A model generated the notes under the pieces. The model had not been told where the DNA came from and made no database searches. It was given only the letters and a program-made list of their open reading frames with translations. DNA of 64,000 bases from Planctomycetota bacterium (GTDB lineage Bacteria; Planctomycetota; UBA8742; UBA2392), in NCBI GenBank assembly GCA_015075515.1, contig JABTUE010000002.1:661478-725477 (forward strand). The letters run 5' to 3'. Shown piece after piece: positions 23,613 through 57,694 of this stretch. Each line of letters opens with the position of its first letter. Position 1 is the stretch's first letter. The position numbers and the translations under genes were made by a program.

Positions 23613-23684
23613 TCCACCCCCGACTTGTGTTCGAACGCCCCGCTGGGGCCCCGGGCCGGAAGATAGCACCGGCACCCTACCGCG

Positions 23685-30971: not shown

Positions 30972-31741
30972 AGCCCGCGCGCGTGACAACCTGGGCGGCG
31001 GTTCTGGCGCTGCTGGTGCTGCTGGCACCGGCCTGTGCCGGGCCCGAAAAGTACACCGACGTCAGCAAGCTGCAGGAACTGCCGGCCGACCATTACGTCT
31101 ACACGCTGGCGCCGGGCGACGAAGTCGCCATCGAGGTGCTGCAGGACAAGGACTACAACCACGAAACCACGGTGCTGCCTGACGGCTCGGCCAGCTTCCG
31201 CTGGATCGGCGAGATCCAGGTGGCCGGGTTGACTCTGGCCCAGACGCGGGAATCGCTGCGCGCGAAACTGGCGCCGTACTACAACGCGCCCACGCTCAGC
31301 CTCAAGCTCAAGCGTATCAACGGCCCCGACCCGATCGTGTTTCTGGGCAACTTCGGCGGCAGCGCCAGCGGCGGCCCCACCCCGCAGGTCAGCCGCGGCG
31401 GCGTCATCCCCTACCGCAAGGGCATGGGCGTGATGGAGGCCGTGGCCCGCGCCGGCGGCGTGGGCGAACCCGACATTGACGTGGCGCCGTACCTGTTTGT
31501 GGTGCGCAACATCAAGTCGGTCAAGGACCGCACCGTGTACCGTTTTGACCTGGCCGAGGCCGTGCGCGGCGGCTCGCCGGACCTGCCGCTGCACCCCGGC
31601 GACGTGATGTTCATTGACCAGTCGTGGCTGCAGGACCTGTCGCGCGCGCTGGGCTATGTGTCGCAGGTGGTGGGCTCAACCACCCAGGGCATCGGCACGG
31701 CCCTGCTGATTGACACGATTTCAGACCGGGCGCGCAACTGA
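30968..31741 (+). CDS. wza: Outer-membrane polysaccharide export protein (Wza/OPX family; Poly_export + SLBB).
   Basis: Signal/lipobox MKPARVTTWAAVLALLVLLAPACAG. Poly_export motif YTLAPGDEVAIEV...DGSASF..GEIQVAGLTLAQ. SLBB-like HPGDVMFI. ATGA overlap with the upstream Wzz gene. Confidence 0.8.
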   Translation: MKPARVTTWAAVLALLVLLAPACAGPEKYTDVSKLQELPADHYVYTLAPGDEVAIEVLQDKDYNHETTVLPDGSASFRWIGEIQVAGLTLAQTRESLRAKLAPYYNAPTLSLKLKRINGPDPIVFLGNFGGSASGGPTPQVSRGGVIPYRKGMGVMEAVARAGGVGEPDIDVAPYLFVVRNIKSVKDRTVYRFDLAEAVRGGSPDLPLHPGDVMFIDQSWLQDLSRALGYVSQVVGSTTQGIGTALLIDTISDRARN

Positions 31742-35965: not shown

Positions 35966-37149
35966 AGGCCCATCTCCGTGCGCACGACTTCGGCCGTGCG
36001 ATCCCAGTCAAAGGCGTGCAGCCGCGACGCGAGATCGTCGGGGTCGAATTTCGGAAACGTCGCCGGGTTGGCCAGCGCACGGCCCCATTCATCGGCGTTG
36101 TGCGCCGCAAACGTCAGGTTCGGCCAGGCCAGCCGCTTCAGTTCGCGCAGCGGGCTGCACAGCACGGGCTTGCCGCAGGTGCTGAACTCGACCACGTTCA
36201 GGGGCGTGGCGTCTTCGGTTACCGGGCGCGGCACATAGGGGTGAACGCCGGCGTCACAGGCGTGAAGATACGCCGCGACTTCGTCGGGCTTTACCGGCCC
36301 TACGCAGTGCACGCCCTCGGCGGGCCCAAGCCGTCGCGGGCCGGCCACGCGGTCGCTGCCGGGCCCGACAACCAGCAACGCCAGTTCGGGCCGCGCCGCC
36401 CGCGCCACCAGCCAGGCATCCAGCAGCATTTCCATGCCGTCAAAGGCCATGCGATGGTTGCCGATGAAACCCACCACAAAACGCCCCTCAAGACCAAGGC
36501 GCGCGCGCACCCGCGCGCCCTGTTCGGGCGGGCATTGCAGCAGGGCCGCGCGAGCCGCGCCGTTGGGCGCATAGGCGGCCCGGCGGCCGGCCAGCTCTTC
36601 GGCCTGTTCGCACAAACTGTGGCTGCAGGCGCTCAGGGTATCGGCGCGGCGCATGGCGTCCTGCAGAAACCGGCGCCGCGAACGCGCCACCACGCCGCCG
36701 CGCCATTCGTCGTGAAAGTTGTCAATCACATCAAAGTGAACGCGATACTTCCTGCGTCCGGGCGCGGGCGGCAGAAAGAAAAACGGGTTGCCGTGAAACA
36801 CGTGCGTGCAGCCGAAACGTTCCACCAGCGCGGCAATGCGGCGGTTGTTGCCCCAGGCCGCCAGGCGGTTGAACAGCGGCCCCGTGGCCGGCCACACCGG
36901 CATGGTGACGCGCGTGACCTTGCCATCTTCCAGCACGCGCGTGCCGCCGAACGCCAGCCTGCGCCGCATGGCCAGCCGCGCGCCCAGGCTGTTGTCGGAG
37001 GTGTTGACGGCTTCGCTGCGGTCCAGCGCGAACACCGGCACGTGCTCGGCCACGCGCCGGGCGATTTCGACCTCGCGCACGCGCAGATCCGGCGCAAACA
37101 GCATGCGCCCGATCCACAGCACCGCCGGTTTTCGGCCCTGGGGCGGCAA
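35962..37149 (-). CDS. Glycosyltransferase (GT4-like).
   Basis: 395 aa. C-terminal PYVPRPVTEDATPLNVVEFSTCGKPVLCS resembles EX7E. ATGA coupling downstream. Confidence 0.6.
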   Translation of the reverse strand: MPPQGRKPAVLWIGRMLFAPDLRVREVEIARRVAEHVPVFALDRSEAVNTSDNSLGARLAMRRRLAFGGTRVLEDGKVTRVTMPVWPATGPLFNRLAAWGNNRRIAALVERFGCTHVFHGNPFFFLPPAPGRRKYRVHFDVIDNFHDEWRGGVVARSRRRFLQDAMRRADTLSACSHSLCEQAEELAGRRAAYAPNGAARAALLQCPPEQGARVRARLGLEGRFVVGFIGNHRMAFDGMEMLLDAWLVARAARPELALLVVGPGSDRVAGPRRLGPAEGVHCVGPVKPDEVAAYLHACDAGVHPYVPRPVTEDATPLNVVEFSTCGKPVLCSPLRELKRLAWPNLTFAAHNADEWGRALANPATFPKFDPDDLASRLHAFDWDRTAEVVRTEMGL

Positions 37150-37155: not shown

Positions 37156-39123
37156 CTAATCCTTTCTGGCGCGCGCGCCGCGCCACAGTTTCAGCAGCGG
37201 CCCGGGAACCAGCGCGCGCACCCCGGCCCGGCACGCCGCCCAGGGCCGCAACGGCGCCAGCCGCCACGCCGCACCCAGGCTGGCCAGCACCATGCCCTGG
37301 TTCTTGTACGCGCCCGCCAGACGCACAAGCTGGTCGGCGCGCGCCGCGCTGTCGGGCCTGCCCACGTGCGTCTGCTGCACGCGCATGGTCATCTCCAGAA
37401 CCTGCGCCAGCCGGCTTTGCGTCAGCGTACCGGCGTGCTCGGTCACCGTATACAGCACCCGCGCCAGCCGCCGCAGCCGCGTCAGACGCGACAGACGCAG
37501 CCACAGCTCGTAGTCTTCGGCCAGGTGGTACTGCGGGTTCACGCCCCCGGCCTGCTGCCACACCGAACGCCGGATCAGAAAGCACAGCCCGATCACGTTG
37601 CGTGACGCCAGTTCGTGCAGCGGCCCGGTCTGCACCACACGGCGCGCGCCAGACGCGTCGGCCAGTTCGTAATCGGCAAAAACCACGCCGGCCTCGGGGT
37701 CCAGCACCAGCTCGCGCGCCAGCGCGGCAATTGCGCCGGGCGCGAACAGGTCATCGTCGGCCTTCCACATCACCAGTTCGCCGTCGGCCACGGCCATGCC
37801 GGCATTGATCGCACCACTCAGGCCGGCGTTGGGCTGGTGGATCACGCGCACGCGATGGTCGGACTCAAAGGGCTTCAGGCGCCGTGCCGTGTCGTCGGTG
37901 CTGCCGTCGTTGACCACAATCAGTTCCAGATCCGGGTAGTCCTGCCCCAGCGTGTTGCGCACGGCGGCTTCGACCCAGTCCGCGCGGTTGTACGTGGGCA
38001 TGACGACGCTGACCTTGGGCAGCGGCGCGCCGGTAGCCAGCGCGTAGACGCCGGCCTCGCGCCGGCCGATCGTGGCCACGTCGTAGGCTTCGCTGGCGGC
38101 GCGGGCCGGCGCCGCCAGCCGCGCGCGCAGCGCGGGGTCGGCAATCGCGCCGATCGCGCGCGCGATGTCGGGCACGCTCAGCGGATCGAAGAGCAGACCG
38201 TCCCACTGGTCGGTAACAACCTCGTTCATCGGCGCGCGGTTGGATGTCAACACCGGCGTGCCGCAGGCCAGAGCCTCGACAATCGCCGTGCCGAAGCCCT
38301 CAAACAGGCTGGGCAGGACCAGCGCGTCGGCCCAGCGGTACCACGGCGGCAGCTCGACGTTAGGCACGGCATCAAGGTGCAACGCGAACCCGAGACGAGA
38401 CCAGTCGCGCGCGCTGCGCCCGATGTGCACCAGCCGCAGTTGCGGGTGAACCGCGCGCGCGCTTTGGCAGGCTTCCACCAACCGGTCCAGGTTCTTCTGG
38501 GGCACATCGCGGGCCACGCACAACAGGCACGGCGAGCCTTTTGGCCCCGCGGCCGTCGGGCCGTCAGGCGAAAACAGCGCGCGGTCTACACGGTTGTGCA
38601 CCGTAACCACACAGGCCGGATCGGCACCCTGCCCGATGGCCGCGCGGGCAACTTCGTCGCTGACGGCGATCAGCCGGCGCGCCCGGCGCAGCACCGCCGA
38701 GCACAACCCGATCACATTGTGCAGGCTGATCACCACCGGAACGCCCAGCGCGGCGGCAAGCTCGAGGCCCAGCCAGCCGCTCCAGCGCGCGCCGTAGGCC
38801 CGCACGCAGCAAGGCCCGAACTCGCGCGCCTGCGCCAGCCACGAAGGGGGCACACCGGGCCAGCCCGCGGCGATTTCGTCGCCCATGGGCGCGGCAAAGT
38901 CCGCCGCCTGTACCGTAGCCAGCCAGGCCTCCAGCGCGGGCTCGGGCGGCAGGGCCATGACGGGAATGCCGGGCCAGTCTCCGCCCCGGCCCCAGTCCAT
39001 GAGCGTAAACCCGTCAAAACAGCCCGCCGGGTTGTAGTACGCGGTCTTGACGGCCGCGTCGGCGCCCGCGGCGCAAAGCTCGCGGGGCAGTTCTTCGGTG
39101 ATCACCAGAAGGCGTCGGCTCAT
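37156..39123 (-). CDS. Bifunctional glycosyltransferase: N-terminal GT4 and C-terminal GT2.
   Basis: GT4: LPSLFEGFGTAIVEALACGTPVLTS. GT2: VSVVMPTYNRADWVEAAVRNTLGQDYPDLELIVVNDGSTDDT with DXD-like D/E residues downstream. 655 aa. Confidence 0.8.
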   Translation of the reverse strand: MSRRLLVITEELPRELCAAGADAAVKTAYYNPAGCFDGFTLMDWGRGGDWPGIPVMALPPEPALEAWLATVQAADFAAPMGDEIAAGWPGVPPSWLAQAREFGPCCVRAYGARWSGWLGLELAAALGVPVVISLHNVIGLCSAVLRRARRLIAVSDEVARAAIGQGADPACVVTVHNRVDRALFSPDGPTAAGPKGSPCLLCVARDVPQKNLDRLVEACQSARAVHPQLRLVHIGRSARDWSRLGFALHLDAVPNVELPPWYRWADALVLPSLFEGFGTAIVEALACGTPVLTSNRAPMNEVVTDQWDGLLFDPLSVPDIARAIGAIADPALRARLAAPARAASEAYDVATIGRREAGVYALATGAPLPKVSVVMPTYNRADWVEAAVRNTLGQDYPDLELIVVNDGSTDDTARRLKPFESDHRVRVIHQPNAGLSGAINAGMAVADGELVMWKADDDLFAPGAIAALARELVLDPEAGVVFADYELADASGARRVVQTGPLHELASRNVIGLCFLIRRSVWQQAGGVNPQYHLAEDYELWLRLSRLTRLRRLARVLYTVTEHAGTLTQSRLAQVLEMTMRVQQTHVGRPDSAARADQLVRLAGAYKNQGMVLASLGAAWRLAPLRPWAACRAGVRALVPGPLLKLWRGARARKD

Positions 39124-40382
39124 GTTACCCGCGCCGCCGGCGCCGCCACCTGCCAGCGCTGGCGCACGTCAATCAGTCCGCGCGCGTCACCCCACGCGGG
39201 CCGCACGCACTCCAGGCGCGCCGCGCCGTCACGCGCGTACAGGGGGTTCTGGTGCGCGCCGTCAAACACGTAGACCTTGCAGCGATAGCGGCCCGCCGGC
39301 AGATGCAGGGCTTCCACCTCCACTTCAACCGCGCCCGTGCCCTCAAGCGTGCGGCCGGCAAACGCGCCGCCGCTGTGCAGATGCACCAGATAGCCCCGCA
39401 TCGCCAGACCAAAACGCGGGTCATCGTGAAACAGCGACAACGCAAACATCGGGCCGTTCAGCGGTGCCCTGGCCTCGAAATGCAGGCGCACCGTCGCGCC
39501 CTGGCCGGGTGTTAAGGTTTCCAGTTCGGCACCGTCAGGGCCAAGCCACTGCACGCGCGTGATCTCGACCAGCGGGCGGCCCTGGACATCTGCGACAAAG
39601 CCGACCTCGTCGGCACGGGCGCCCGAACCGCCGCTGTCAGCCAGATAGCGTGCGACCACGTCGGCGGGTTCACCCAGCGCCGCGGCCCGGCCCTGGTTCA
39701 GGTACAGAACGCGATCGCAGGGCCGGATGTTGTGCATTTCGTGGCTGACCAGCACCACCGCCCCGCCGCCGCGACGCCGCGAGGCGATCCAGTCATAGCA
39801 CTTCACCTGAAACGCCGCGTCGCCCACGGCCAGAACTTCGTCCACCACCAGCACGTCGGGTTCGGCGTGGGCCGCAATCGCAAAGGCCAGCCGCGCGTAC
39901 ATGCCGCTGGAGTAATCCTTGACCGGCATGTCCATGAACTCGGCAAGTCCGGCAAACTCGACAATCGAATCGTACTTGCGCCGCACCTCGGCCCGGGACA
40001 GTCCCAGAATCACGCCATTGATGGCCACGTTTTCGCGCCCGGACAGGTACGGGTGAAACCCGGCACCCAGTTCAATCAGCCCGCCGGCACGCCCGCGCAC
40101 GGCCACAACTCCGGCGTCCGGGCGCAGAATGCGCGTAAGCAGCTTGAGAACCGTGCTTTTGCCCGAACCGTTGGGGCCGATGATGCCCAGCATCTCGCCC
40201 GGCCGCACCTGAAACGAAACGTCGCGCAGGGCAAAGAACTCGCCCGGCCGCAGGCCCTCGGCATCACGCCCGGCGGCCCACCGGCGCCAGGCACCGCTGA
40301 CCAGTTCCGCCAGCGTGCGCGCGCGACCGGTGCGCGCAAAGCGCTTGGACACGCCGGTGACCTCGACGCAGGGGGCGCTCAT
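39120..40382 (-). CDS. wzt: ABC transporter ATP-binding protein Wzt/TagH/KpsT type with a C-terminal ~170-aa extension (Wzt_C-like glycan-terminus-binding domain).
   Basis: Start ATG 40382 in an ATGA overlap with wzm. Walker A GPNGSGKST. ABC signature YSSGMYARLAFA. Walker B VLVVDE. The ~170 residues after the NBD (…VQWLGPDGAELETLTPGQGATVRLHFEA...RYRCKVYVFDG…) form a beta-rich extra domain. The upstream in-frame extension to 41114 is the antisense of wzm. Confidence 0.85.
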   Translation of the reverse strand: MSAPCVEVTGVSKRFARTGRARTLAELVSGAWRRWAAGRDAEGLRPGEFFALRDVSFQVRPGEMLGIIGPNGSGKSTVLKLLTRILRPDAGVVAVRGRAGGLIELGAGFHPYLSGRENVAINGVILGLSRAEVRRKYDSIVEFAGLAEFMDMPVKDYSSGMYARLAFAIAAHAEPDVLVVDEVLAVGDAAFQVKCYDWIASRRRGGGAVVLVSHEMHNIRPCDRVLYLNQGRAAALGEPADVVARYLADSGGSGARADEVGFVADVQGRPLVEITRVQWLGPDGAELETLTPGQGATVRLHFEARAPLNGPMFALSLFHDDPRFGLAMRGYLVHLHSGGAFAGRTLEGTGAVEVEVEALHLPAGRYRCKVYVFDGAHQNPLYARDGAARLECVRPAWGDARGLIDVRQRWQVAAPAARVT

Positions 40383-41164
40383 GCCAGCTCCCCAAAGCGT
40401 GGTTCCGCGCGCCGGAACCACAGCCAGCCCGACACCAGCACCAGCGCGCTGATCGCGGCGGACGCGCCGAATTCGGGCGCCAGGGTAAACTGCCCGCCGA
40501 CAATCAGCCCGCGGTAGGCGTCCAGAATCGGCGTCATCGGGTTCAGCCACGCCAGCAGCGCCAGCGAACCCTGGCGTGGAATCGGCCAGATCACTGAACT
40601 GGCGAACATCCACACCAGCACCACAAGCTGCAGAATGAACTGCACGTCGCGGTACAGGAGGTTTGCCGCCGACACCCACAGCGCCACGCCGCAGGCCAGC
40701 ACAAGCTGCACGCCGATCACCACCGGCACCAGCAGCAGCCCGGCCCCCGGCTTGACCCCGAACCAGGCCATCAACCCCGCGACCAGAACACCCGCCACGG
40801 CAAAATCCACCAGCGCCGAAAGTACCACGGAAAGCGGCAGCACCTCGCGCCGGAAGTAAACCTTGGTGACCAGGTTGCGGTTGTCGCTCAGGCTGCGCGC
40901 GGCGCCGGTCAGCACCGCGGCGTGGAACTGCCACGGCACCAGCCCGATGTACACAAACACCGGGTAAGGAACGGGCGCGGTGTCCAGCCGCGCCACGCGC
41001 GTGAACACCAGCGTGAACACCAGCATCAGGCACAGCGGCTGGGCCACGGCCCAGCCAAGACCCAGCAGCGTGTGCTTGTAGCGCACGCGCACCTCGCGCA
41101 TGCCCAGCATCCACGCCAGTTCGCGGCTGCGGAAAATTTCGCCAAGGTCGGCAAGCAGGGCCAT
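40379..41164 (-). CDS. wzm: ABC-2 type polysaccharide exporter permease (Wzm/KpsM/TagG).
   Basis: Start ATG 41164 (MALLADLGEIFRSRELAWMLGMREVRVRYKHTLLGLGWAV..., the canonical ABC-2 N-terminus). Six TM helices. 262 aa. Confidence 0.85.
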   Translation of the reverse strand: MALLADLGEIFRSRELAWMLGMREVRVRYKHTLLGLGWAVAQPLCLMLVFTLVFTRVARLDTAPVPYPVFVYIGLVPWQFHAAVLTGAARSLSDNRNLVTKVYFRREVLPLSVVLSALVDFAVAGVLVAGLMAWFGVKPGAGLLLVPVVIGVQLVLACGVALWVSAANLLYRDVQFILQLVVLVWMFASSVIWPIPRQGSLALLAWLNPMTPILDAYRGLIVGGQFTLAPEFGASAAISALVLVSGWLWFRRAEPRFGELA

Positions 41165-41216: not shown

Positions 41217-44200
41217 TCAGTCGCCCCAGAACCAGGTGTCGGCAAAGCCGTCGGAATCCACGGCCGGGATCTCGCCGTCAATGAACCCGCCCACCATCAC
41301 CATGCGCGCGCCCACCGGGTCCCAGACCGCGCCGTGGCCCCAGCGCCGCTGCGGCTGCGCCACGGGCGGTGCGGTCAGCGACCACACCAGCGTGGCGACG
41401 TCAAGCACGTACAGGCCGTTGGCGGCCTCGCTGCCGAACCCGCCAAACAGCAGCACGCGGTGCAGGGCGGCGTCGTAGACCATGCTGTGGTAGTACAGCG
41501 ACGGTGGCGCGGTACCGGTCTTGGTCAGCGTGGTCCAGACCGGCGCCCCGGTCAGGTTCAGCGCGTGGAAGGTGCCCAGCGCGCCGCCGTTCAGCCCGCC
41601 GTACAGCAGCATGCGCTGGCCCGCCGGGTCGTACACCGCCGCCGCGGCCAGACGCGGCAGCGGCGCGTTGGCGGCCGCAATCTGCGACCAGACCAGCGTG
41701 TTCAGGTTCAGTTCGAAGGTGGTGTTCTGGATCGCGCCGGTTTCGCTGGCGCCGCCGAAAATCACCATGCGGCCGGGCCCGGCCAGAACCGCCACGTGCT
41801 GGGCGCGTCGGCCGGGCGAGGCGCCGGATGTGGTCAACAGCGTCCACTGTTCGGACCCGGGCGTAAGGTCCAGCGCCCAGACTTCGTCCGTAATCGTGCT
41901 GTTGGCAATGCCGGTGCGGCCGCCATACAGGATCATGCGCCCGCCCGCGGCGTCATAGACCATCGTGCCCGTGCGGCGCGGGCCGGGGCGCGGGCCGGTC
42001 ACGGCAAGCCGCGCCCAGGCCGGACGCACGGCATTGAGGTCAAGCTGCCACAGTTCACCGTCGTTGGCGCCGGCAAGGAACCCGCCGAACGCAATCAACC
42101 GGTGGTTGGCCGCGTCGCGTTCCACGTGCGAGTGCACCAGCCCCGGCGGCTGAAGCGGCGCGCCCGCAAGCTGCCAGCCCGCCGACGGGTTGGTCACGTC
42201 CAGGCGCCACAGGTCGCGCACGCCAGCCCCGGCCTCAAGCCCGAAACCGACCAGCAGGTCGTTGCCGTCCATCACCGCGTTGTGGCTGGTGCGCGCGCCG
42301 GGGCCGCCGCCGGGCAGTGTGACCGGCGCCCAGGCCGCCTGCGTGCCGCCAAGATCCAGATGCCACAGGTCGGCCGCGGCGCCGTTGCCGCTGTGGATCC
42401 AGACCGACGTGGCCGCGGCGTTGGCCGCCCAGGCAAAATGCGACCGCACGTTCATGGGCGTGCCGCCGACCTGCGAAATGTTCGTCCACGCACCGGCGGG
42501 GTTCAGGTCCAGCGCCCATACGTCGTTCAGACCCTTGAGCGAGTTGCGCCCGGCAAAGATCACCATGCGCTGACGAACGGCGTCATAGATTGCGCCATGG
42601 CCCTGGCGCACATCCGGCGACAGGCCGGGCAGATGCTGCACCCAGCCCGGCGCCGCGAAATCAAAGATCCAGACATCATTGTAGTTGGTGGTACCCAGAC
42701 CGCCGAACAACACTGCGCGGTCCAGCACACTGTCGTACACCAGCGTGTGGAAGATGCGCCCGGCGGGGCCGCCGGCTGCATGCTGGGTCCAGCTTGCGCC
42801 GGTGGCCGAAGACAGATCCAGTGACCACAGGTCGGCGTGCCGCACGCCCGAGGCATCCTGGCCGCCGCTGATCAACAGGCGACGGTTCAACGCGTCATAG
42901 GCACCGGCGGCGTACACGCGCGTGGCGGGGCCGCTGCCGGTCACGCTCAGACGCTGCCAGGCCGCGCCCGCCACGGAACGATCCAGCACCCATACATCGC
43001 CGAAGTAGCTGCTGGCATCCTTGCCGCCCCACAGCACCAGCCGGTCATGGAACGTGTCGTGAACCATCACCGCGCCCCAGCGCGCCGCCGGATAGGCGGT
43101 GACAGATGCCGGCGGTGTCCAGACCGGAACAGCGCCCAGCGCCAGGATACTCAGGCCGGTCATCGGCTGCGTGTTGACGTTCAGGCCGCCGTAGAAGATA
43201 CCCTCCAGGCGCGCCGGATCCATCACCGCCGAACCCTGCACGCGACCCGTGGCGGCGATTTCGTCCTGGGCCAAAGGAGTCCAGACGTGCTGGTTGGGAC
43301 CCTGCAGGTCCAGAATGAAGCCGTCCAGCCGCACAGTGCTGCCGTTGTAGCCGCTGCAGGTGATCAGCCGGTTGGCCGCCGTGTCGTGCAGATAACTGCT
43401 GAAGTAGCGCGCCCCCGGTGTACCCGTCGTGCTGACAGCAGACCAGGCCAGACTGGTCAGGTTCATCTGCCACACGTCGGACTGCGTGCCGGCGGTGGTG
43501 TGCCCGCCGTACACCACCATGCGGTTGCCCGCGGCGTCCAGCACCGCGGCGTGGCCGTTGCGACCCGGGCCGCCGGTGCTGATAGCGGCAGCGCCCCACA
43601 GGCTGGTGCCCAGGTCCAGCGCCCAGGTGTCGTTCAGATAGGTGCTGCCCAGGCCGCCGTGCATCAGCACACGGTTGTTGCCGGCATCCAGCACCAGCGA
43701 ATGGCCGTACCGCGCCGCCGGAATGCCCGGCGAGGCCGCGGCAATCTGTGTCCAGGTTTCGGTGCCCGCGCCCAGGCTGAGCTGCCAGGCGTCATTGAGC
43801 GCGCCGGAGTTGCCAAACCCGCCGAACACGATCATGCGCTGGCCCGCGGCGTCGTAGACGGCCGCTGCGTACTGGCGGCCCGCCGGTGTTGTGCCCGCCG
43901 GGTAAATACGGCGCCAGTACGGTGCGGCACCACGCTGGTACACCCAGGTTTCGTTGCTGCGGATCGAACCCTTGCGACCGCCGAAGATCACCATGCGGTC
44001 GTTGGCGGCATCAAACACCGCCACGTGGCCGAACAGCGGCACGCTTTGTTCGCCGGGCGTAAGGTGCTTGGCCCAGCCGCCGTCACGACTGAGCGCAAAC
44101 GGCGGGCTGAGACCCGGCGCGCCGGGCAGGGCACCGATAAACGGCTGCAACGTCAGTACATAGGCCGGGTCTGTCGCGTGGCGCTCGGTGGCGTAGGCGT

Positions 44201-47200
44201 CCCAGACAAACTCAAGGCTTGAGTTGGCCGGAATGCCGACGATCGTGTTGCCGGAAATTGTGCCGGTGCTGGTCCAGACCAGCACCGGCGGCCCGGCGTT
44301 GGCGCCGCCCGTGTAGGTAACAACTACGTCAATTGTGGTCAGCGGCGTGCCGTTGACCGTGGCGCTGACGCGCAGCGGCCCGCCGTCGTCGGGGCTGACT
44401 GTCACGCCGGTGACACTGCTGGCCGGCAAGGCATTGCCACTGACGGCAATGTCGTAGGTAGCTTCATCCAGATCATCACTGTCAATGTCGAGGTCAAACG
44501 ACCAGCCTCCGGCCGCAATCGGCGTGATGGTCACGTCCAGCGTGGCAGTACCCAAGGGCGACAGGTTGGTCGAGCTGAAGCTGCCCAGTACCACGTTGCA
44601 GTTGCTGTTGTTGGCAAAGCTGCGGCCGGTCAGGGTCAGGTCGGCCGAACCAAAGTTGCGGATCGTGTAGGTGATCAGCGTCGGCGTGCCGGAAACAGTG
44701 CCGGTCACGCTGTCGCTGCCGCCGTCGGCAATCGGGTTGCCCGCCGGGCGCTGCACGTCAATCTCGCCGCCGGGCGCGGCCGTGCCGCTGACCGCAATGT
44801 CGTAGGGGTTCTCGTCCACATCGTCGCTGGCAATGTCGAGATCAAACGACCAGGCCCCGGCCGCGATCGGCGTGATGGTCACATTCAGTGTCGCCGTGGC
44901 CGATGGAGCCAGGCTGGTGCTGCTGAACGTACCCAGCACCACGTTGCAGTTGCTGTTGTTGGCAAAGCTGCGGCCGGTCAGGGTCAACGTCGCCGTTCCC
45001 TGGTTGCGGATCGTGTAGGTAATCAACGTGGCCACACCGGCCACCGTACCGGTCACGCTGTCACTGCCGCCATCCACAATGGTCGTACCGGCCGGGCGTT
45101 CCACGTTGATCTCGCCGCCGGGCACGGCTGTGCCGCTGACGGCAATGTCGTAGGTACCTTCGTCGAGATCGTCGCTGAAGATGTTCAGCGTAAACGACCA
45201 GCCGCCGGCGGAAAGCGGCGTAATTGCCACGTTCAGTGTTGCCGTCGCCGCGGGGGCCAGGCTGCTGGAACTGAAAGCGCCCAGCGCCACGTTGGTGTTG
45301 AAAAGCGACGTCACGTTGCGGCCGGTCAAAGTCAACGTCGCCGTACCCTGGTTGCGGATCGTGTAAGTGATGATCGTGGCCGAGCCGGCGCTCGTGCCGG
45401 TCACCGTGTCACTGCCGCCATCCAGAATGGTCGTACCCGCCGGGCGCTCCACGTTGATTTCGCCGCCAACCTGAGCCGTGCCGCTGACAAAAATGTCATA
45501 GGTGGCCTCGTCCAGGTCGTCGCTGTCTATGTCGAGGTCAAACGACCAGCCACCGGCGGCGATCGGCGTGATGGTCACGTCCAGTGTTGCCGTGGCCGAC
45601 GGCGCCAGGCTGGTGGAACTGAAGCTGCCCAGCACCACGTTGCAGTTGCTGTTGTTGGCAAAGCTGCGGCCGGTCAAAGTTAACGTTGCCGTGCCCTGGT
45701 TGCGGATCGTGTAGGTGATGTTGGTGGGTGCCCCGGCCACCGTGCCGCTTACACTGTCACTGCCGCCATCGAGGATTGTCGTACCCGCCGGACGTTCAAC
45801 ATTGATCTCGCCACCGGGAGCAGCCGTGCCGCTGACAAAGATGTCGTAGGGCGACTCGTCCAGGTCGTCGCTGTCAATGTCGAGGTCAAACGACCAGCCA
45901 CTGGCGGCAATCGGCGTGATGGTCACGCCCAGTGTCGCCGTAGCCGACGGCGCGAGGCTGGTGGAGCTGAAGCTGCCCAGCACCACGTTGCAGTTGCTGT
46001 TGTTGGCAAAGCTGCGGCCGGTCAAGGTCAGCGTAACCGGGCCGGTGTTGCGGATCGTGTACGTGATGACAATCGGCGCGCCGGCGATGCTGCCGGTAAC
46101 GCCATCACTGCCGCCGTCGAGGATGGTCGTTCCCGCCGGGCGCTCGACGTTGATGTCGCCGCCGGGCGCTGCCGTGCCGCTGACAAAAATGTCGTAGGGG
46201 TTTTCATCCGTGTCGTTGCTGTTGATATCGAGATCAAACGACCAGAAGCCCGCCGCGGCAGGCGTGATTGTGACGGCCAGCGTGGCCGTGGCCGCCGGGG
46301 CCAGGTTTGTGGAACTGAAGGAACCCAAGGCGACGCCGCAGTTGACTTCGTTGGCGGTGCTGCGCCCCGTCAGTGTCAGTGTCGAAGAGCCCTGGTTGCG
46401 GATAGTGTAGGTAATCACCGTCGGCGCGCCGGCCACGGTTCCGCTCACGCTGTCGCTGCCGCCATCGGCGATGGTCGTGCCTGACGGACGTTCAACATTG
46501 ATCTCGGCGCCGGTGGTGGCGGTGCCGCTGACGGCAATGTTGTACGGGTTCTCATCGAGGTCGTCGCTGAGGATATTCAGGGTGAACGACCAACCGCCGG
46601 CGGCAACCGGCGTGATGCTTACGCTAAGCGTCGCTGTGGCACCGGGCGCCAGGCTGCCGGAACTGAAGGACCCAAGCCCGACACCGCAGTTGACCAGCGA
46701 CGCCGCGTTGCGGCCAGTCAGTGTCAGTGTTGCCGTACCCTGGTTGCGGATCGTGTAGGTGACAATCGTGGCCACACCGGCCACGGTGCCGGTCACGGTG
46801 TCACTGCCGCCGTCCACGATGGTTGTGCCGGCCGGGCGTTCCACGTTGATTTCGCCGCCTACCAGGGCCGTGCCGCTGACGGCAATGTCGTAGGGGTTCT
46901 CGTCGCTGTCGTTGCTGTCTATGTCGAGGTCAAACGACCACGCGCCGGCCGCCGTGGGCGTAACGGTAACGGTCAGCGTCGTCGAGCCGCCGGCGGCCAC
47001 AGTGGACGAGCCGAAGCTGCCCAGTGCCACACCACAGTTCACCAGGTTTGCAACGCTGCGCCCGGTAAGGTTCAGTGTGGAACCACCCAGATTCTGGATC
47101 GTGAATGTCACCGGCGTGCCTGCCCCGGCCACGGTACCGGTCACCGCGGTGCTGCCGCCGTCGGCGATGTTGGTGCCCGCCGGGCGCTGCACATTGATTT

Positions 47201-49547
47201 CGGGCGGGGCCAGAGCCGTGCCGCTGGCGTTGATGTCGTAGGGGTTCTCGTCCAGATCATCGTTGGCCAGGTGCAGGGCAAAACTGAACGCGCCCGCCGC
47301 CGTCGGCGTCACCGTGGCCTGCATGGTAGTGCTGCCGCCAGGAGCCAGGGGCGTCGCGCCGGGCGGGGTCAACACCACGCCGCAGTTCACAATGCCGTTT
47401 ACGGTAAACGCGCCCAGATTGATGCTGCCGGTGGCCGCCACGTTGCGCACAGTGTAGGTCAGAACCAGCGGCACACCCGCCACGTGCGTGCCCAGGGCGT
47501 CGTTGCCGTTGTCGGCAATGATTGTGCCCGCCGGGCGCTCAATCTGGATTTCGCCGGGCACACCGGTACCGGACACATTCACCGTGTAGCTGGGCACGTC
47601 GGGGTCGTTGCTGGCAAAAACCAGCTGGCACGAAAACGCGCCGGCCGCCAGCGGTGTCACCTGCACCTGAGCGGTCGTGGTTGCCGACGCCGCCAGCAGG
47701 GTACCCGACGGGTTTGTAGTCACGTTGACGCTACAATTGGTCGCGCCGCTGAACGAAAGCGCAGGGTTTCCCAGCAGCAGCCCGGTGCTGCCGATGTTGC
47801 GCAGCGTGTAGGTCAGGGTCTGCGGCGCGCCGGTGGGCACACTGCCCAGGGCTTCCGCGCCACCGGCGGGAATGATCGTGCCGGCCGGGCGCTCTACCTG
47901 AAGCCGTCCCAGAATTTCGCGGTCGCGGTCGGCCATAATCTGCGCCGCGGTGCGCGCATGGGCCCAGAAGCGGAACTCATCCACACGGCCGTCAAACGAC
48001 GTGGGAGTCCCCCCGCCATTTCGCATCACAAAGAGCTGCGCGTTGGCAAATGGAAACGTGTAGTTGATGGACTCAAATGCCTGTGTGCCGTTGGCATACA
48101 CCCGCAGGCCGAACACGCCCGGGTTGGAAACAATGGCAATATGCGTCCAGCCATTGTTGGCCAGGTTCACCCCGGTGGAGATGTCCTGGTCGCCGCCCGC
48201 CGGGCCGCTCTGGATGCGTAGTGTCGCGTTCTGGCGATACACCCGAAACGAGGTTCCGTCGCCGCAGATGGTCGTGGTGGCATTGCCCGATCGCCACACC
48301 CAGAACTCCAGTGTGAACTCCGGGCGCGGCAACTGCGTGCAACTGAAACCGGTGGGAAGGTTCGTGGTGGCCTGGACTGCAGATGCCCCAAGCCGCGCAT
48401 TGGCCGTTGTGGTCCAGGACACTGCGGCAAATGTGGCGGGATTATTCCCCCGGCCCGGCGATGCGTCATTGCGCGTGGTTGTACCTGTACCCTCGTTGAA
48501 CCGGTAATACAGCATCTCCGGTCGGCCCGTGTTCACCATGCCGTTGAACGTGAACGTATACGGGTTGGGCGATCGGTCATTGTTGATGTTCACCGTGAAC
48601 GTGAACTCGGCCTGGGCCGGCGTGACCTGAATCGTGAACGTCGTGGTGGCCCCCGGCGCGATCGTCGAAGGCTGCACCGTAACGTTGGCGGTTGCGCCGG
48701 TGATGCTTCCCAGAGTCACGGGCGTAAAGCTCACGTTGCCGGCGGGGCGCATGTTGCGAATCGTGAACGTGAAGTTTGACGCCACACCCGAGGCCACGTT
48801 CGTAAATCCGGCCAGACCCTGGTGCTTCACAAAGATGTTCGAAGAGTCAAAAACATCTATGTCCTGGGTAAGGAATGACGCGAACCGGTTGGCCTCAAGC
48901 TCGGCCTGGGTGCGCTGAACCGACCACAGCCGGAACTCATCCATTTCACCGCTGTAGGTCGCGGGCGAGGCGCCCTGCCAGTACAGCAGACCCATGGCGT
49001 TGGTGGTGAACGTGTTTGCCATGGTGCCTGTTACGCTGGTCAGACCGGGCGCCGTGGTTCCCCAGTACAAGGTCCAGGCGTTGGTGGCGTTGCGGGTGAC
49101 GGCAACGTAGCGCCAGGTGCCGTCGTTGTTGTTTGTGTTGGTGGACTGAATCGTACCCGCGCTGGTCTGCAACTCGATGCGGCCGTTGTTCAGCCACAGA
49201 CCGAAGTTCACGCTGTCGTTGACGAAGTCCTGATACCCGGTGCCCGTGGTGCGGAACCACAGTTCAATCGTCAGGGCCTGGCCGTTACGTTCGGCCAGCG
49301 AATAGCCCGTGTTCAGGCGCCGGTTCTGGCCAACGTTGTTGACTGCCGCCGGCGGAATCTGTGGCGTTGTGGTGTTCCACAATGGCGCGGCGCTGAAGGC
49401 ACCCTGGTTCCAGCCTTGGCCGGGTATGGCGTGGTTCTTGGCCGCGGCGCCGGATGTTTCGTCGAACTTGTAGTAGATGATCTGCGGCTGCGCGAAGCAG
49501 CCGGCGGCCAGCACCAGACATGACACCAGCAACCAGAGCTTCCGCAT
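41217..49547 (-). CDS. Giant secreted protein (2,776 aa). Architecture: LamG (concanavalin-like) - Ig-like repeat - LamG - ten tandem 116-aa Ig-like (ASH / choice-of-anchor-D-like) repeats - ~100-aa beta domain - ~950-aa C-terminal region of Kelch-type beta-propeller blades.
   Basis: Start ATG 49547 (MRKLWLLVSCLVLAAGCFAQP, a signal peptide). The upstream in-frame extension to 49736 lies in low-GC promoter DNA. LamG motifs: ALTIELWFRTT...EMDEFRLWSVQRTQAE and FTLEFWVWRS...VDEFRFWAHARTAAQI. Repeat consensus: EINVERPAGTTI.DGGSDSV.GTVAG...ITYTIRN.GTATLTLTGRSFANNSNCNVVLGSFSSTSLAPSATATL.VTITPIAAGGWSFDLDIDSDDLDE..YDI.VSGTA. More than 14 Kelch-like blades in the C-terminal region (e.g. RYGHSLVLDAGNNRVLMHGGLGSTYLNDTWALDL; HTLVYDSVLDRAVLFGGLGTTNYNDVWIFDF). 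Confidence 0.85.
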   Translation of the reverse strand: MRKLWLLVSCLVLAAGCFAQPQIIYYKFDETSGAAAKNHAIPGQGWNQGAFSAAPLWNTTTPQIPPAAVNNVGQNRRLNTGYSLAERNGQALTIELWFRTTGTGYQDFVNDSVNFGLWLNNGRIELQTSAGTIQSTNTNNNDGTWRYVAVTRNATNAWTLYWGTTAPGLTSVTGTMANTFTTNAMGLLYWQGASPATYSGEMDEFRLWSVQRTQAELEANRFASFLTQDIDVFDSSNIFVKHQGLAGFTNVASGVASNFTFTIRNMRPAGNVSFTPVTLGSITGATANVTVQPSTIAPGATTTFTIQVTPAQAEFTFTVNINNDRSPNPYTFTFNGMVNTGRPEMLYYRFNEGTGTTTRNDASPGRGNNPATFAAVSWTTTANARLGASAVQATTNLPTGFSCTQLPRPEFTLEFWVWRSGNATTTICGDGTSFRVYRQNATLRIQSGPAGGDQDISTGVNLANNGWTHIAIVSNPGVFGLRVYANGTQAFESINYTFPFANAQLFVMRNGGGTPTSFDGRVDEFRFWAHARTAAQIMADRDREILGRLQVERPAGTIIPAGGAEALGSVPTGAPQTLTYTLRNIGSTGLLLGNPALSFSGATNCSVNVTTNPSGTLLAASATTTAQVQVTPLAAGAFSCQLVFASNDPDVPSYTVNVSGTGVPGEIQIERPAGTIIADNGNDALGTHVAGVPLVLTYTVRNVAATGSINLGAFTVNGIVNCGVVLTPPGATPLAPGGSTTMQATVTPTAAGAFSFALHLANDDLDENPYDINASGTALAPPEINVQRPAGTNIADGGSTAVTGTVAGAGTPVTFTIQNLGGSTLNLTGRSVANLVNCGVALGSFGSSTVAAGGSTTLTVTVTPTAAGAWSFDLDIDSNDSDENPYDIAVSGTALVGGEINVERPAGTTIVDGGSDTVTGTVAGVATIVTYTIRNQGTATLTLTGRNAASLVNCGVGLGSFSSGSLAPGATATLSVSITPVAAGGWSFTLNILSDDLDENPYNIAVSGTATTGAEINVERPSGTTIADGGSDSVSGTVAGAPTVITYTIRNQGSSTLTLTGRSTANEVNCGVALGSFSSTNLAPAATATLAVTITPAAAGFWSFDLDINSNDTDENPYDIFVSGTAAPGGDINVERPAGTTILDGGSDGVTGSIAGAPIVITYTIRNTGPVTLTLTGRSFANNSNCNVVLGSFSSTSLAPSATATLGVTITPIAASGWSFDLDIDSDDLDESPYDIFVSGTAAPGGEINVERPAGTTILDGGSDSVSGTVAGAPTNITYTIRNQGTATLTLTGRSFANNSNCNVVLGSFSSTSLAPSATATLDVTITPIAAGGWSFDLDIDSDDLDEATYDIFVSGTAQVGGEINVERPAGTTILDGGSDTVTGTSAGSATIITYTIRNQGTATLTLTGRNVTSLFNTNVALGAFSSSSLAPAATATLNVAITPLSAGGWSFTLNIFSDDLDEGTYDIAVSGTAVPGGEINVERPAGTTIVDGGSDSVTGTVAGVATLITYTIRNQGTATLTLTGRSFANNSNCNVVLGTFSSTSLAPSATATLNVTITPIAAGAWSFDLDIASDDVDENPYDIAVSGTAAPGGEIDVQRPAGNPIADGGSDSVTGTVSGTPTLITYTIRNFGSADLTLTGRSFANNSNCNVVLGSFSSTNLSPLGTATLDVTITPIAAGGWSFDLDIDSDDLDEATYDIAVSGNALPASSVTGVTVSPDDGGPLRVSATVNGTPLTTIDVVVTYTGGANAGPPVLVWTSTGTISGNTIVGIPANSSLEFVWDAYATERHATDPAYVLTLQPFIGALPGAPGLSPPFALSRDGGWAKHLTPGEQSVPLFGHVAVFDAANDRMVIFGGRKGSIRSNETWVYQRGAAPYWRRIYPAGTTPAGRQYAAAVYDAAGQRMIVFGGFGNSGALNDAWQLSLGAGTETWTQIAAASPGIPAARYGHSLVLDAGNNRVLMHGGLGSTYLNDTWALDLGTSLWGAAAISTGGPGRNGHAAVLDAAGNRMVVYGGHTTAGTQSDVWQMNLTSLAWSAVSTTGTPGARYFSSYLHDTAANRLITCSGYNGSTVRLDGFILDLQGPNQHVWTPLAQDEIAATGRVQGSAVMDPARLEGIFYGGLNVNTQPMTGLSILALGAVPVWTPPASVTAYPAARWGAVMVHDTFHDRLVLWGGKDASSYFGDVWVLDRSVAGAAWQRLSVTGSGPATRVYAAGAYDALNRRLLISGGQDASGVRHADLWSLDLSSATGASWTQHAAGGPAGRIFHTLVYDSVLDRAVLFGGLGTTNYNDVWIFDFAAPGWVQHLPGLSPDVRQGHGAIYDAVRQRMVIFAGRNSLKGLNDVWALDLNPAGAWTNISQVGGTPMNVRSHFAWAANAAATSVWIHSGNGAAADLWHLDLGGTQAAWAPVTLPGGGPGARTSHNAVMDGNDLLVGFGLEAGAGVRDLWRLDVTNPSAGWQLAGAPLQPPGLVHSHVERDAANHRLIAFGGFLAGANDGELWQLDLNAVRPAWARLAVTGPRPGPRRTGTMVYDAAGGRMILYGGRTGIANSTITDEVWALDLTPGSEQWTLLTTSGASPGRRAQHVAVLAGPGRMVIFGGASETGAIQNTTFELNLNTLVWSQIAAANAPLPRLAAAAVYDPAGQRMLLYGGLNGGALGTFHALNLTGAPVWTTLTKTGTAPPSLYYHSMVYDAALHRVLLFGGFGSEAANGLYVLDVATLVWSLTAPPVAQPQRRWGHGAVWDPVGARMVMVGGFIDGEIPAVDSDGFADTWFWGD
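44440..47900. repeat. In-frame DNA tandem array inside the giant gene: ~10 copies of a 348-bp unit. The central copies are near-identical.
   Basis: The same antisense mini-ORF (MSRSNDQPPAAIGVMVT...LRPV.VNVAVPWLRIV) recurs in the track at 44485, 44833, 45181, 45529, 45877, 46225, ~46573 and ~46921. That is an exact 348-bp period (116 aa x 3). The protein repeats 6-9 differ at only a few residues. Confidence 0.85.
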
Positions 49548-49609
49548 ACCGGCCCGTCCCAGCATTATTGGCGTCGCAGGATGCCCGAACACGAAAATGC
49601 AGCAGGCCA

Positions 49610-49700
49610 ATATTCTATACCTGCGGCCCCACCGGCGCCACAATTGCACTGCGCCATTTTGAATTGTTGTCTTGCTATATCGCCTATTTTGCACATAACA
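49610..49700 (-). promoter_or_regulatory. Candidate sigma70-type promoter or promoters and 5' leader of the giant gene, in a low-GC island.
   Basis: On the minus strand: TTGTGG -N18- TATAGAAT (complement of 49613-49644). A second candidate is TTGTTA -N16- TATAGC (complement of ~49670-49700). A 5'-UTR inverted repeat TATTGGC...GCCAATA flanks ~32 nt upstream of the ATG. GC here is far below the window average. Confidence 0.35.
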
Positions 49701-49810
49701 ATACGCACGATGCTGGGGTCCGATAATCCCAAACAACGCCTTCGCCTGCGCGAGGATAGGCCAACCAGGCCAGCGATATGTCGTTTTGACTAGTTTCGGA
49801 TCGCCTGCGC

Positions 49811-51676: not shown

Positions 51677-51783
51677 ACCCGGCACCGACCTACTTTCGCC
51701 TTTCGACTATCATCGGCCCCAAGGGCTTAACTTCCGAGTTCGGAATGGGATCGGGTGTGACCCCTTGGGTATGGGCACCGAGA
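51677..51783 (-). rRNA. rrf: 5S ribosomal RNA (short, ~107 nt).
   Basis: The minus-strand read CUCGGUGCCCAUACCCAAGGGGUCACACCCGAUCCCAUUCCGAACUCGGAAGUUAAGCCCUUGGGGCCGAUGAUAGUCGAAAGGCGAAAGUAGGUCGGUGCCGGG aligns closely with bacterial 5S (cf. B. subtilis GGUCACACCCGUUCCCAUACCGAACACGGAAGUUAAGC). Helix I pairs with G-U wobbles. Helix IV is shortened. Confidence 0.85.
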
Positions 51784-51944
51784 AAAATTGTCAAGCGGTT
51801 CGCTGACAACAACATACTGCTGGTTGCAGAAGCCAGGGCTTGCGCCCAGAAAATGCGTGATCGCGTACGGCATGTCCTGGAGTGTTGTAACATTCCAACC
51901 ACCCCTGAAGAATCAGAGATTGTTGAGGTCAAGCCGATCGGATG

Positions 51945-54890
<2,946 letters not shown>

Positions 54891-55146
54891 ACCTCCGGAT
54901 CCCTCCGAGGTGTAATTCCCCGCAACCCGGCCGACATTCGGCCGCCGGGCCGCAGAGAGCCAAGACATGTCGTAGCGATACATCGTTTTTCTCTCAGACA
55001 CGCCATGATGTCTCTCGACACATGGTGAATCAGGAGTGACTTCTGCACTTCACAGTATGTTGTTGTCAAAGAACCGTCGGTACCACTGCTCCGGCACCGG
55101 GGGCAGGCCATCACAATGACCTGCCCCCGAAGCCGGCACGCGCGCC

Positions 55147-55221
55147 TGGTGGACCAGAGGGGATTCGAACCCCTGACCCTCGGCTTGCAAAGCCGATGCT
55201 CTACCACTGAGCTACTGGCCC
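55147..55221 (-). tRNA. tRNA-Ala (anticodon UGC) with the G3:U70 wobble. CCA is encoded.
   Basis: GGGCCAG-TA-GCTC-AGTGGTA-GAGC-A-TCGGC-TTTGCAA-GCCGA-GGGTC-AGGGG-TTCGAAT-CCCCT-CTGGTCC-A-CCA. Clean cloverleaf. Located in the 16S-23S spacer. Confidence 0.95.
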
Positions 55222-55254
55222 CCTGTGCCGCAGGGATTTCGGCCAGCGGCAGGG

Positions 55255-55331
55255 TGGTGCGCCGGGGCGGACTCGAACCGCCGACCTCACGCTTATCAGG
55301 CGTGTGCTCTAACCAGCTGAGCTACCGGCGC
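55255..55331 (-). tRNA. tRNA-Ile (anticodon GAU). CCA is encoded.
   Basis: GCGCCGG-TA-GCTC-AGCTGGTTA-GAGC-A-CACGC-CTGATAA-GCGTG-AGGTC-GGCGG-TTCGAGT-CCGCC-CCGGCGC-A-CCA. Perfect cloverleaf, 77 nt. Confidence 0.95.
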
Positions 55332-55510
55332 CCGACTTGCAGCCCCGGAAACTCTGGGCACCTCTGCCTCGCCCCGCGGTCCGCGGCGCGATGCCGCATC
55401 GGGCCGCGGGAAATATCCCCGCGGCCCGGTGCACGCGTATATGTTGAATAGCCAGAACGTGAGGACATGCCTTACGACGGGGCGAATCGCTTCGCACCGA
55501 AGTCTATGTA

Positions 55511-57040
<1,530 letters not shown>

Positions 57041-57694
57041 ATCAACAAAAGATTGATCCAGAGTCACATCAAACTCGGCTGTTTGGGCAAAACACCGAAT
57101 TCACGGTGCTTGCTTGCATACATCGAGGATGTGACCTGATTGTTTGAATCAGCGTCCGTCCGGGCAGGCCCGGCGGACTTCTGCGACGTTTCCATCGCGC
57201 ATTCCCTGACCCCTAAGGGTCGAGGGCGCAGAACCATGCTTCCGGTAATTGCCCACCGTTGTGGTGGCCACCAACACACCCGAAGGGGTCTGCCGGCAGG
57301 GTCATGGACCGTCAACCAGGAAGATCAAGTCCGCCTCACATCCTCGCGTTCTTGGCTATTCAGTTTTCAAAGAGCACATCTTTCAGGCCGCCTTTGGCCG
57401 CCCAAAAAATCACCGGTGCCGATCCCTTTGCAGGGCAGGCACCGGACGCGCGAGGCTCGCAAGCCTCAGGCGTTCAGCGCCCTGCTCCTGTCCCAGGAGA
57501 TTCGGTTGCGCTAACGGCACATTCCTGCTGTGCCGGGCCGCGCAGTGTAACCCGGGGGTTATTGCCGGTCAACCCCGTACCTGCCTGTTTTTTGCCCGTG
57601 CTTCGCTGCGGCCACTGCCGAAACCCGCGCTGTGACGCAACTTCCGGGCTGGTGGGTACTTCGTGCTTCCTTCAACTTCCCCCGAAGGGGACGC

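Follow-up and report, generated by a model that had tools for sequence, protein, structure and literature searches.

That bacterial surface proteins can carry tandem arrays of immunoglobulin-like (Ig-like) domains in variable copy number is well known, and the case described here changes no concept in this respect. Giant Gram-negative adhesins such as MpIBP, LapA and SiiE carry bacterial Ig-like (BIg) domains as extenders between their terminal functional modules; these adhesins are exported by type I secretion, have RTX signals at the C-terminus and lack a Sec signal. The 'choice-of-anchor' families are named for alternative C-terminal sorting signals. The Periscope Proteins are variable-length bacterial surface proteins, among them SasG/Aap, Rib/alpha C, Sgo_0707 and Esp (Whelan et al. 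2021, PMC8201768), and they are defined there operationally by tandem repeats longer than 50 amino acids (aa), with at least 80% identity and with repeat-number variation among proteins that are at least 90% identical. In this work we describe a tandem array of Ig-like units inside a giant gene on the minus strand of a 64,000-nt stretch of a Planctomycetota contig (JABTUE010000002.1; the whole stretch is called the window). The array has 10 units in the window, 11 in a nearly identical assembly, and between 2 and 18 in orthologues of other species. We read it, with a probability of roughly 65%, as a length-variable Ig-like stalk or spacer in a secreted protein linked to a Wzm/Wzt polysaccharide locus, in which whole 348-bp units would be gained and lost by homologous recombination.

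The array lies within one minus-strand open reading frame (ORF) at 41217-49736. The actual start of the gene is the ATG at 49547, which gives a product of 2,776 aa. The NCBI protein MBE7491760.1 (P0001), named choice-of-anchor D domain-containing protein and derived from a Planctomycetota metagenome-assembled genome (MAG), matches it from end to end with 100% identity. The protein and its domain annotation are already in NCBI; this work adds the copy-number polymorphism at nucleotide resolution, the architecture of the family and its synteny.

When anchored on the recurring motif [VI][EQ]RP[AS]G, the array occupies 44409-47897 and consists of ten consecutive in-frame units. An array at 44440-47900 with ten exact copies of 348 bp had been proposed from the letters of the window (called the original prediction below). 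The array and its ten in-frame units were found as proposed, but only units 3-10 (44409-47192) are exactly 348 bp (116 aa), while unit 1 has 354 bp (118 aa) and unit 2 has 351 bp (117 aa). Tandem Repeats Finder (TRF) reported a single array at 44435-47262 with a period of 348, 8.1 copies, 76% matches and a score of 2416, leaving units 1 and 2 outside. A lag scan of 43.5-48.6 kb gave peaks at 348 (identity 0.56) and 696 (0.53), with other lags at about 0.33-0.35. For the control, unrelated in-phase 348-nt pieces of the same gene were 29 ± 2.5% identical, with a maximum of 38%. Between the pairs of units 3-10, the DNA identity is 66-84% (mean 73.5%) and the protein identity 60-87% (mean 73%). 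The top protein pair in the window is formed by units 6 and 7 (87%, with 84% in DNA), followed by units 7 and 9 (86%) and units 6 and 9 (83%), and the adjacent pairs other than 6-7 have a protein identity of 66-78%. Central repeats described as near-identical, at about 90%, were thus an overstatement. DNA identity below 70%, which the original prediction took as the mark of ancient divergent repeats, was found in 7 of the 28 pairs of units 3-10 and also for the outer units 1 and 2 (51-61% to the remaining units), which by this measure are old and divergent, the other 21 pairs not falling below it. A hidden Markov model (HMM) built from the ten units also found an isolated, divergent eleventh copy at aa 236-344, between two LamG domains (34.7 bits, independent E-value 8e-12). 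The plus-strand ORFs within the array (e.g. 45877-46197) were dismissed as antisense artefacts of a high-GC coding region, because the minus-strand frame holds all the domain matches and the orthology.

We compared the window with near-identical sequences at the assembly level rather than the read level; all of these sequences, including that of the window, are metagenome assemblies. The 90% cluster of the window protein has one 2,892-aa member, which is longer by 116 aa, and two partial proteins from another MAG. The gene for the 2,892-aa protein is in JASNZQ010000009.1 of GCA_048499555.1 (L004). Its flanks are 100% identical to the window over 10 kb downstream and have one mismatch (99.96%) over 2.6 kb upstream; within the gene there are zero mismatches over 8,331 nt, given one 348-bp indel. 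L004 has 11 units, and TRF counts 9.1 copies in it against 8.1 in the window. In place of unit 7 it has two adjacent units, 7a and 7b, which are 94% identical in protein and 90% in DNA (synonymous divergence, dS, 0.35; 34 differing sites; longest exact run 86 nt). The unit 7 of the window equals 7a through unit nt 144 and 7b from nt 147. For the 3' part of 7a, the closest donor elsewhere in the array reaches at most 81%. Because this part has no close donor and the locus is otherwise nearly free of substitutions, the 11-unit form is not a recent duplication of the unit 7 in the window. We infer that the 10-unit form was derived by deletion, or that both alleles were drawn from a polymorphic pool.

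The other MAG, GCA_023384155.1, represents the same strain: outside unit 7, a stretch of about 16 kb shows a single mismatch to the window. Its two contigs (L005 and L006) end inside the array, at unit 7. The unit 7 of L005 passes from 7a to 7b at the same junction as that of the window, then ends in a tail of the 7a type, and it is followed by a unit-7-like head and not by unit 8. This genome therefore carries 11 units or more and represents a third haplotype, which is mosaic. The instability is centred on unit 7, where L004 has its 90%-identical adjacent pair. Both the expectation that the copy number varies (here 11 units against 10, and 2,892 against 2,776 aa) and the warning that such an array troubles assemblies, as the contigs broken inside unit 7 illustrate, were borne out. 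Exact-pattern scans of Joint Genome Institute (JGI) metagenome contigs, with the patch of units 6, 7, 9 and 10 and with a 41-mer specific to unit 8, gave 0 matches and no further alleles; the two patterns were confirmed as present, one in the window and one in the loci. No literature on the assembly accessions was found.

Since all these sequences are MAG contigs, the difference between 10 and 11 units may be an assembly artefact, with one true copy number and an array collapsed or expanded in one assembly. This is the most probable of the alternatives, although we consider it unlikely. The contig break of the third assembly falls exactly within the array, contigs that end in repeats may be chimeric, and the 11-unit contig starts inside a 23S rRNA gene, which suggests a fragmented assembly. 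Moreover, the three assemblies are only 0-1 single nucleotide polymorphism per 15-20 kb apart and may come from shared or related samples. However, the unit 7 junction of the window (C144-AA-C147) is found in neither 7a nor 7b, so the collapse of an 11-unit allele in a k-mer graph cannot yield it, and L005, an independent assembly, has the same junction. The window lacks 34 sites that are present in the 3' part of 7a and the 5' part of 7b, and real reads with these sites must exist. No stretch longer than 86 nt is identical between 7a and 7b, so that ordinary assemblers can separate them, and the window contig is 987 kb long and spans a complete rRNA operon.

The comparison of copy number in related genomes, which was proposed as a check on the original prediction, gives the same picture on a larger scale. 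The closest homologues, P0002 (3,717 aa), P0003 (4,155 aa), P0004 (3,395 aa), P0006 and P0007, all have the same N- and C-terminal modules, while P0005 is partial and ends inside its own repeat array, so that its N-terminal module alone is comparable. We take these homologues as orthologues because they have the same terminal modules and, where contigs were retrieved, the same neighbourhood. Six further orthologues were found in species-representative Planctomycetota MAGs. Units of the window type number 2 in each of L009, L011 and L012, at least 6 in L007 (partial), 10 in the window, 15 in P0004, 17 in P0003 (plus 5 of a 333-bp type) and 18 in P0002; the single partial protein of L008 (P0005) has 7 of them and 10 of a second subtype. 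The syntenic orthologues thus carry 2-18 units.

The units do not all share the same history. Units 1-3 are positional orthologues; for example, unit 1 of the window is 79% identical to unit 1 of P0002 but at most 48% to the units of its own protein. On the other hand, units 4-10 are 79-87% identical in aa among themselves compared with 65-81% to any unit of an orthologue, and among the inner units of P0002 the identity is 84-95%, mostly 91-95%. Because units 1-3 match by position and units 4-10 cluster within the protein, the array is, on these alignments, an old fixed proximal core (units 1-3) with lineage-specific inner expansions. Arrays of other Ig-like subtypes are present between the main array and the Kelch block in P0003, P0005, P0006, P0007 and P0011. 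The one in P0003 (L002, 17896-18718) has a 333-bp period, that in P0005 has about 10 units of the second subtype, and P0011, whose N-terminus differs, has 17-19 units of about 125 aa. The stalk region behaves as an exchangeable cassette.

For the age of the units, the dS between window units is 0.52-1.1, with omega of 0.15-0.46, and the comparison with the orthologues gave a dS of 0.9-1.3, both in units 1-3 and outside the repeats. Therefore units 6, 7 and 9, the youngest in the window, arose after the split from the nearest sampled orthologue. They are still far from recent, and the substitution ratios make purifying selection on the units evident. Of the recent expansion or concerted evolution that had been proposed, the lineage-specific expansion or homogenisation stands, as units 4-10 cluster together, but it is not recent on a population scale given these dS values. 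The longest exact DNA match between window units has 59 nt (units 6 and 7), and the other exact matches among units 6, 7, 9 and 10 have 43-49 nt, all of them at unit positions 118-182. When the runs of concordant polymorphic sites were compared with 2,000 shuffles, five of the six pairs of these four units had a run that no shuffle equalled, and for units 7 and 9 it was equalled by 2 (p = 0.001); in the global test it was 0 of 2,000. This suggests a gene-conversion tract common to units 6, 7, 9 and 10, to which local constraint could contribute.

A different pattern was seen in P0002 (L001, 10001-21154). Eight of its inner units that were compared in DNA are only 77-86% identical, with nonsynonymous divergence (dN) of 0.03-0.09 and dS of 0.55-1.67. 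The proteins of these repeats are near-identical while their synonymous sites have diverged, which is the opposite of what plain gene conversion would leave. It may stem from strong constraint, from selection against DNA identity that favours recombination, or from saturated dS estimates.

The units are Ig-like beta-sandwiches of the choice-of-anchor D / HYDIN-VesB-CFA65 family, in the ASH/PapD-like superfamily. Their membership is given both by HMM scores above the curated cut-offs and by fold. The choice-of-anchor D model NF012200 matches 10 stretches with 163.6 bits (cut-off 45), PF22544 (HYDIN/CFA65/VesB-like Ig) reaches 150.9 bits (cut-off 25.5), and PF15780 (ASH) reaches 98.1 bits (cut-off 27). 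The AlphaFold2 model of units 6-7 has a mean predicted local distance difference test score of 82.9 and consists of two all-beta domains. Its top Foldseek matches in PDB are 9ijj and 7sqc, which are ciliary central-apparatus ASH proteins, and the SPD-2 domain of CEP192, with E-values of 5e-13 to 2e-08. A PDB sequence search with the two-unit segment gave no match, and the fold search was the informative one. Compared with other choice-of-anchor D/ASH proteins, the window protein shares the fold, the NCBI name and HMM scores far above the cut-off in all 10 units. The solved examples, however, are eukaryotic ciliary or centrosomal proteins (hydin, central-apparatus proteins and CEP192) that it does not match at the sequence level. 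Literature searches under 'choice-of-anchor D' gave nothing on function.

The modules of the protein follow the order of a Sec signal, LamG, Ig, LamG, ten Ig units, a beta domain and 18 Kelch blades (Table 1). The signal peptide is probably cut by signal peptidase I after an A-x-A-type site, because a lipobox-like Cys is not conserved among the orthologues. A lipoprotein anchor (AAG followed by C within the signal peptide) was rejected accordingly, as the Cys is absent or misplaced in the orthologues, all of which keep A-x-A followed by QP. The linker domain of about 117 aa after the array, which gave no family match, is probably another beta-sandwich. The Kelch region is also backed by PDB sequence matches to Kelch proteins and by the count of blade motifs, and its 18 blades would form three six-bladed propellers. 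The motif W[FY]WGD stands directly before the stop codon in every orthologue (41220-41240 in the window) and probably closes the last Kelch propeller as its final strand. It may also act as a recognition signal. As a sorting signal it was rejected as unsupported, since it looks like the D-x-W-x-[LF]-D strand that closes each Kelch blade. Pfam and NCBIfam scans of the whole protein found no C-terminal sorting or anchor signal (PEP-CTERM, LPXTG or the C-terminal domain of type IX secretion). Such a signal is usual in many choice-of-anchor D members but is not needed for membership of the domain, and in this the window protein differs from the family, as it has none of the alternative sorting signals. 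Around the gene, scans for promoters and terminators gave results no better than chance.

Table 1. Features of the giant gene, its repeat array and the adjoining transporter genes (window coordinates).
Feature	Position	Strand	Basis or remark
Gene for the 2,776-aa secreted multidomain protein	41217..49547 (stop codon 41217-41219)	-	ORF, translation, Pfam and NCBIfam matches
Sec-type signal peptide, MRKLWLLVSCLVLAAGCFA before QP	49491..49547	-	Inferred from translation and orthologue N-termini
First LamG / concanavalin-like domain (Laminin_G_3), approximate boundaries	48843..49490	-	PF13385, 2 stretches, E = 1.9e-25
Isolated divergent Ig-like copy, aa 236-344	48516..48842	-	HMM of the 10 units
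Second LamG domain (Laminin_G_3)	47898..48515	-	Best PF13385 stretch is aa 404-537
Unit 1, 118 aa, 354 bp, positional orthologue	47544..47897	-	79% aa to P0002 unit 1
Unit 2, 117 aa, 351 bp, positional orthologue	47193..47543	-	Motif anchoring, unit comparison
Unit 3, 116 aa, 348 bp, positional orthologue	46845..47192	-	Motif anchoring, unit comparison
Unit 4, 348 bp	46497..46844	-	Motif anchoring, unit comparison
Unit 5, 348 bp	46149..46496	-	Motif anchoring, unit comparison
Unit 6, 348 bp; 59-nt exact patch (45967-46025) in common with unit 7	45801..46148	-	
Unit 7, 348 bp; 5' part of 7a fused to 3' part of 7b of the 11-unit allele	45453..45800	-	
348-bp indel junction against the 11-unit allele	45654-45656 (gene nt 3891-3893)	-	Sole switch interval with zero mismatches
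Unit 8, 348 bp	45105..45452	-	Motif anchoring, unit comparison
Unit 9, 348 bp	44757..45104	-	Motif anchoring, unit comparison
Unit 10, 348 bp, last of the array	44409..44756	-	Motif anchoring, unit comparison
Linker domain of ~117 aa (SSVTGVTV...), kept in all orthologues	44058..44408	-	Orthologue sequences
Kelch region of ~946 aa, 18 blades of ~52 aa	41220..44057	-	PF24681, E = 7.5e-130, and other Kelch families
wzm-like ABC-2 permease, 52 nt downstream of the stop of the giant gene	40379..41164	-	PF01061; coordinates from L004 gene call
wzt-like ABC ATPase with Wzt_C domain	39120..40382	-	PF00005 and PF14524; L004 gene call

When compared with the Periscope Proteins, the window protein shares tandem folded domains longer than 50 aa (116-118 aa here) that are mostly Ig-like beta-sandwiches there, a repeat number that differs between very close genomes and widely between homologues, and a non-repetitive putative binding module beyond the array. 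Variation in number is present within one 90% cluster, with 2,776 and 2,892 aa, both known from assemblies only. For the 80% identity threshold, which that work used for detection, units 6, 7 and 9 reach 83-87% and 7a and 7b reach 94%, while the other adjacent pairs have 66-78% and the mean is 73%, which makes the mean aa identity of the window array lower than in that group. The long and highly similar DNA repeats of the group, which favour recombination within the gene, are not seen here, as the maximum is 84% with an exact run of 59 nt in the window and 90% with 86 nt in L004. The window protein further differs in having functional modules at both ends, with no cell-wall or outer-membrane anchor identified, and in its host, an environmental planctomycete and not a host-associated pathogen. 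Periscope Proteins are attached to the cell surface and project a binding domain on a rod-like array, whereas for the window protein a Sec signal was read and no anchor motif was found. The choice-of-anchor D / ASH domain does not seem to be among the characterised stalk domains named in PMC8201768.

The likeness to the giant adhesins lies in the long chain of beta-sandwiches used as an extender, with conserved acidic residues that might bind Ca2+, and the difference lies in the N-terminal Sec signal and the lack of RTX repeats. An adhesin of the type I secretion (RTX) class was rejected for the window protein: the Sec signal is present, no RTX family matched, and the neighbouring ABC system is a Wzm/Wzt one (ABC-2, polysaccharide) with Wzt_C.

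The genomic neighbourhood of the gene is conserved. Beyond wzt there are several glycosyltransferases, followed by a Poly_export (Wza-like) gene, an epimerase and an MBOAT acyltransferase; upstream, and divergent from the giant gene, there is recJ and then a complete rRNA operon. In the retrieved orthologue contigs the order is kept as recJ, divergent from the giant gene, then (with a methyltransferase) wzm, wzt, a glycosyltransferase fusion and a UDP-GlcNAc 2-epimerase. The giant gene, wzm, wzt and the glycosyltransferases have the same order in L001-L004, with extra methyltransferase genes interleaved in L001 and L002. The wzm-like permease is probably co-transcribed with the giant gene, and the protein is probably a functional part of the Wzm/Wzt polysaccharide locus, at the head of which its gene stands.

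It may be asked whether the units themselves bind, either Ca2+ through the motif D-x-D-x-x-S-D-D-x-D-E-x-x-Y or the polysaccharide of the locus, so that the copy number would tune avidity and not reach. Eight residues (R3, P4, G6, N34, D95, D97, E98 and Y101) are invariant across the units, purifying selection is strong (the inner units in L001 have 92-95% identity in aa against 77-86% in DNA), and the gene is conserved beside a polysaccharide export locus, all of which are in favour of this account. Nevertheless, we find it rather improbable. The literature searched documents no ligand-binding function for this domain family, and the acidic motif is a general signature of the family that could equally rigidify the linkers between domains. 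As for an old static set of diverged domains without biologically relevant ongoing dynamics, which the dS between units, the low DNA identities (7 of 28 pairs of units 3-10 below 70%, and units 1 and 2 against the rest) and the positional conservation of units 1-3 would allow, it is highly improbable, and for the inner units it is contradicted by the near-clonal assemblies with 10 and 11 units and mosaic forms of unit 7, by the 2-18 units of the syntenic orthologues, by the grouping of inner units by genome and not by position, and by the significantly long identical patches between units.

Our preferred reading remains that of a length-variable stalk. The array would then be an extended spacer, its length fixing how far apart the two putative glycan- or ligand-binding ends stand and, if one end is held at the envelope, how far the distal end is from the cell. 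The terminal LamG and Kelch modules would bind glycans or other ligands tied to the co-encoded polysaccharide. Units would be gained and lost by unequal homologous recombination between similar neighbours, with short gene-conversion tracts passing among them, and the inner units would be lineage-specific expansions kept by purifying selection next to the old fixed core of units 1-3.

Several points weigh against this reading. The DNA identity of the units (66-84%) is far below that of the classical length-variable surface proteins, and recombination should be infrequent because the longest exact match in the window allele has 59 nt. Assembly or haplotype mixing could lie behind part of the difference between 10 and 11 units or of the mosaicism at the contig ends. 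No cell-surface anchor or outer-membrane export signal was found; the Sec signal is the sole export feature, so that a stalk on the cell surface is an assumption, as is the rod-like geometry of the array. Finally, if the window allele came straight from that of L004, the fusion junction would have only 2 nt of identity between informative sites, and a simple crossover therefore needs a converted intermediate of the L005 type, which is seen only in part. A series of three steps could remove this last difficulty: starting from an L004-type allele, a conversion tract from 7b into the middle of 7a would yield an L005-type allele, and an unequal crossover in the now identical tract would then produce the 10-unit allele of the window.

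Some other observations were made in the window. Downstream of the giant gene, the locus for polysaccharide biosynthesis and export covers about 23.7-41.2 kb on the minus strand, together with 30968-32688 on the plus strand, and includes wzm, wzt, several GT4/GT2 glycosyltransferases, Poly_export, an NAD-dependent epimerase/dehydratase and the MBOAT acyltransferase. The rRNA operon adjoining recJ (51677-57045, minus strand) consists of 16S (55519-57045), tRNA-Ile (55255-55331), tRNA-Ala (55147-55221), 23S (51925-54884) and 5S (51677-51782), and accounts for the low-GC stretch at 52-58 kb. At 1-2667 on the minus strand, a repetitive beta-sandwich protein of at least 889 aa runs past the window start, with multiple CarboxypepD_reg / SdrD_B / SpaA-type prealbumin-like domains (PF13620, E = 2.6e-66). 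Five long ORFs (16088-19471 and 27258-30452, both on the minus strand, and 9146-10312, 22677-24776 and 34880-36238) have a coding-type GC content at third codon positions of 0.79-0.86 but no Pfam match at E <= 1e-5 (E <= 1e-3 for 34880-36238); two of them exceed 1,000 aa, and 27258-30452 lies inside the polysaccharide locus. On the minus strand, a Ser/Thr protein kinase gene (10334-11761) is located near a gene (12868-15663) whose 931-aa product has an FHA domain at the N-terminus and a CAP/SCP domain at the C-terminus, and the two may be a signalling pair.

The copy number of 10 in the window should be treated as one of several states and not as a fixed value, whether or not an artefact is involved. 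The locus provides a clean nucleotide-resolved case of whole-domain gain or loss in a giant secreted protein of an uncultured planctomycete, from which a plausible course of events, first gene conversion and then unequal crossover, can be suggested. The conserved pairing with the Wzm/Wzt locus is also a testable functional lead for this family of giant proteins. We further propose, tentatively and at somewhat less than even odds, that the 10-unit, 11-unit and mosaic alleles coexist in one population, and that the protein belongs to an uncharacterised, Planctomycetota-restricted and polysaccharide-coupled family of the form LamG-Ig-LamG-[ASH]n-Kelch x3. If this is true, the switching of domain number would tune how the protein contacts or spans the polysaccharide layer of its own cell, and the periscope principle would reach an environmental phylum and a new stalk domain, with repeats that stay alike in protein while diverging at synonymous sites.

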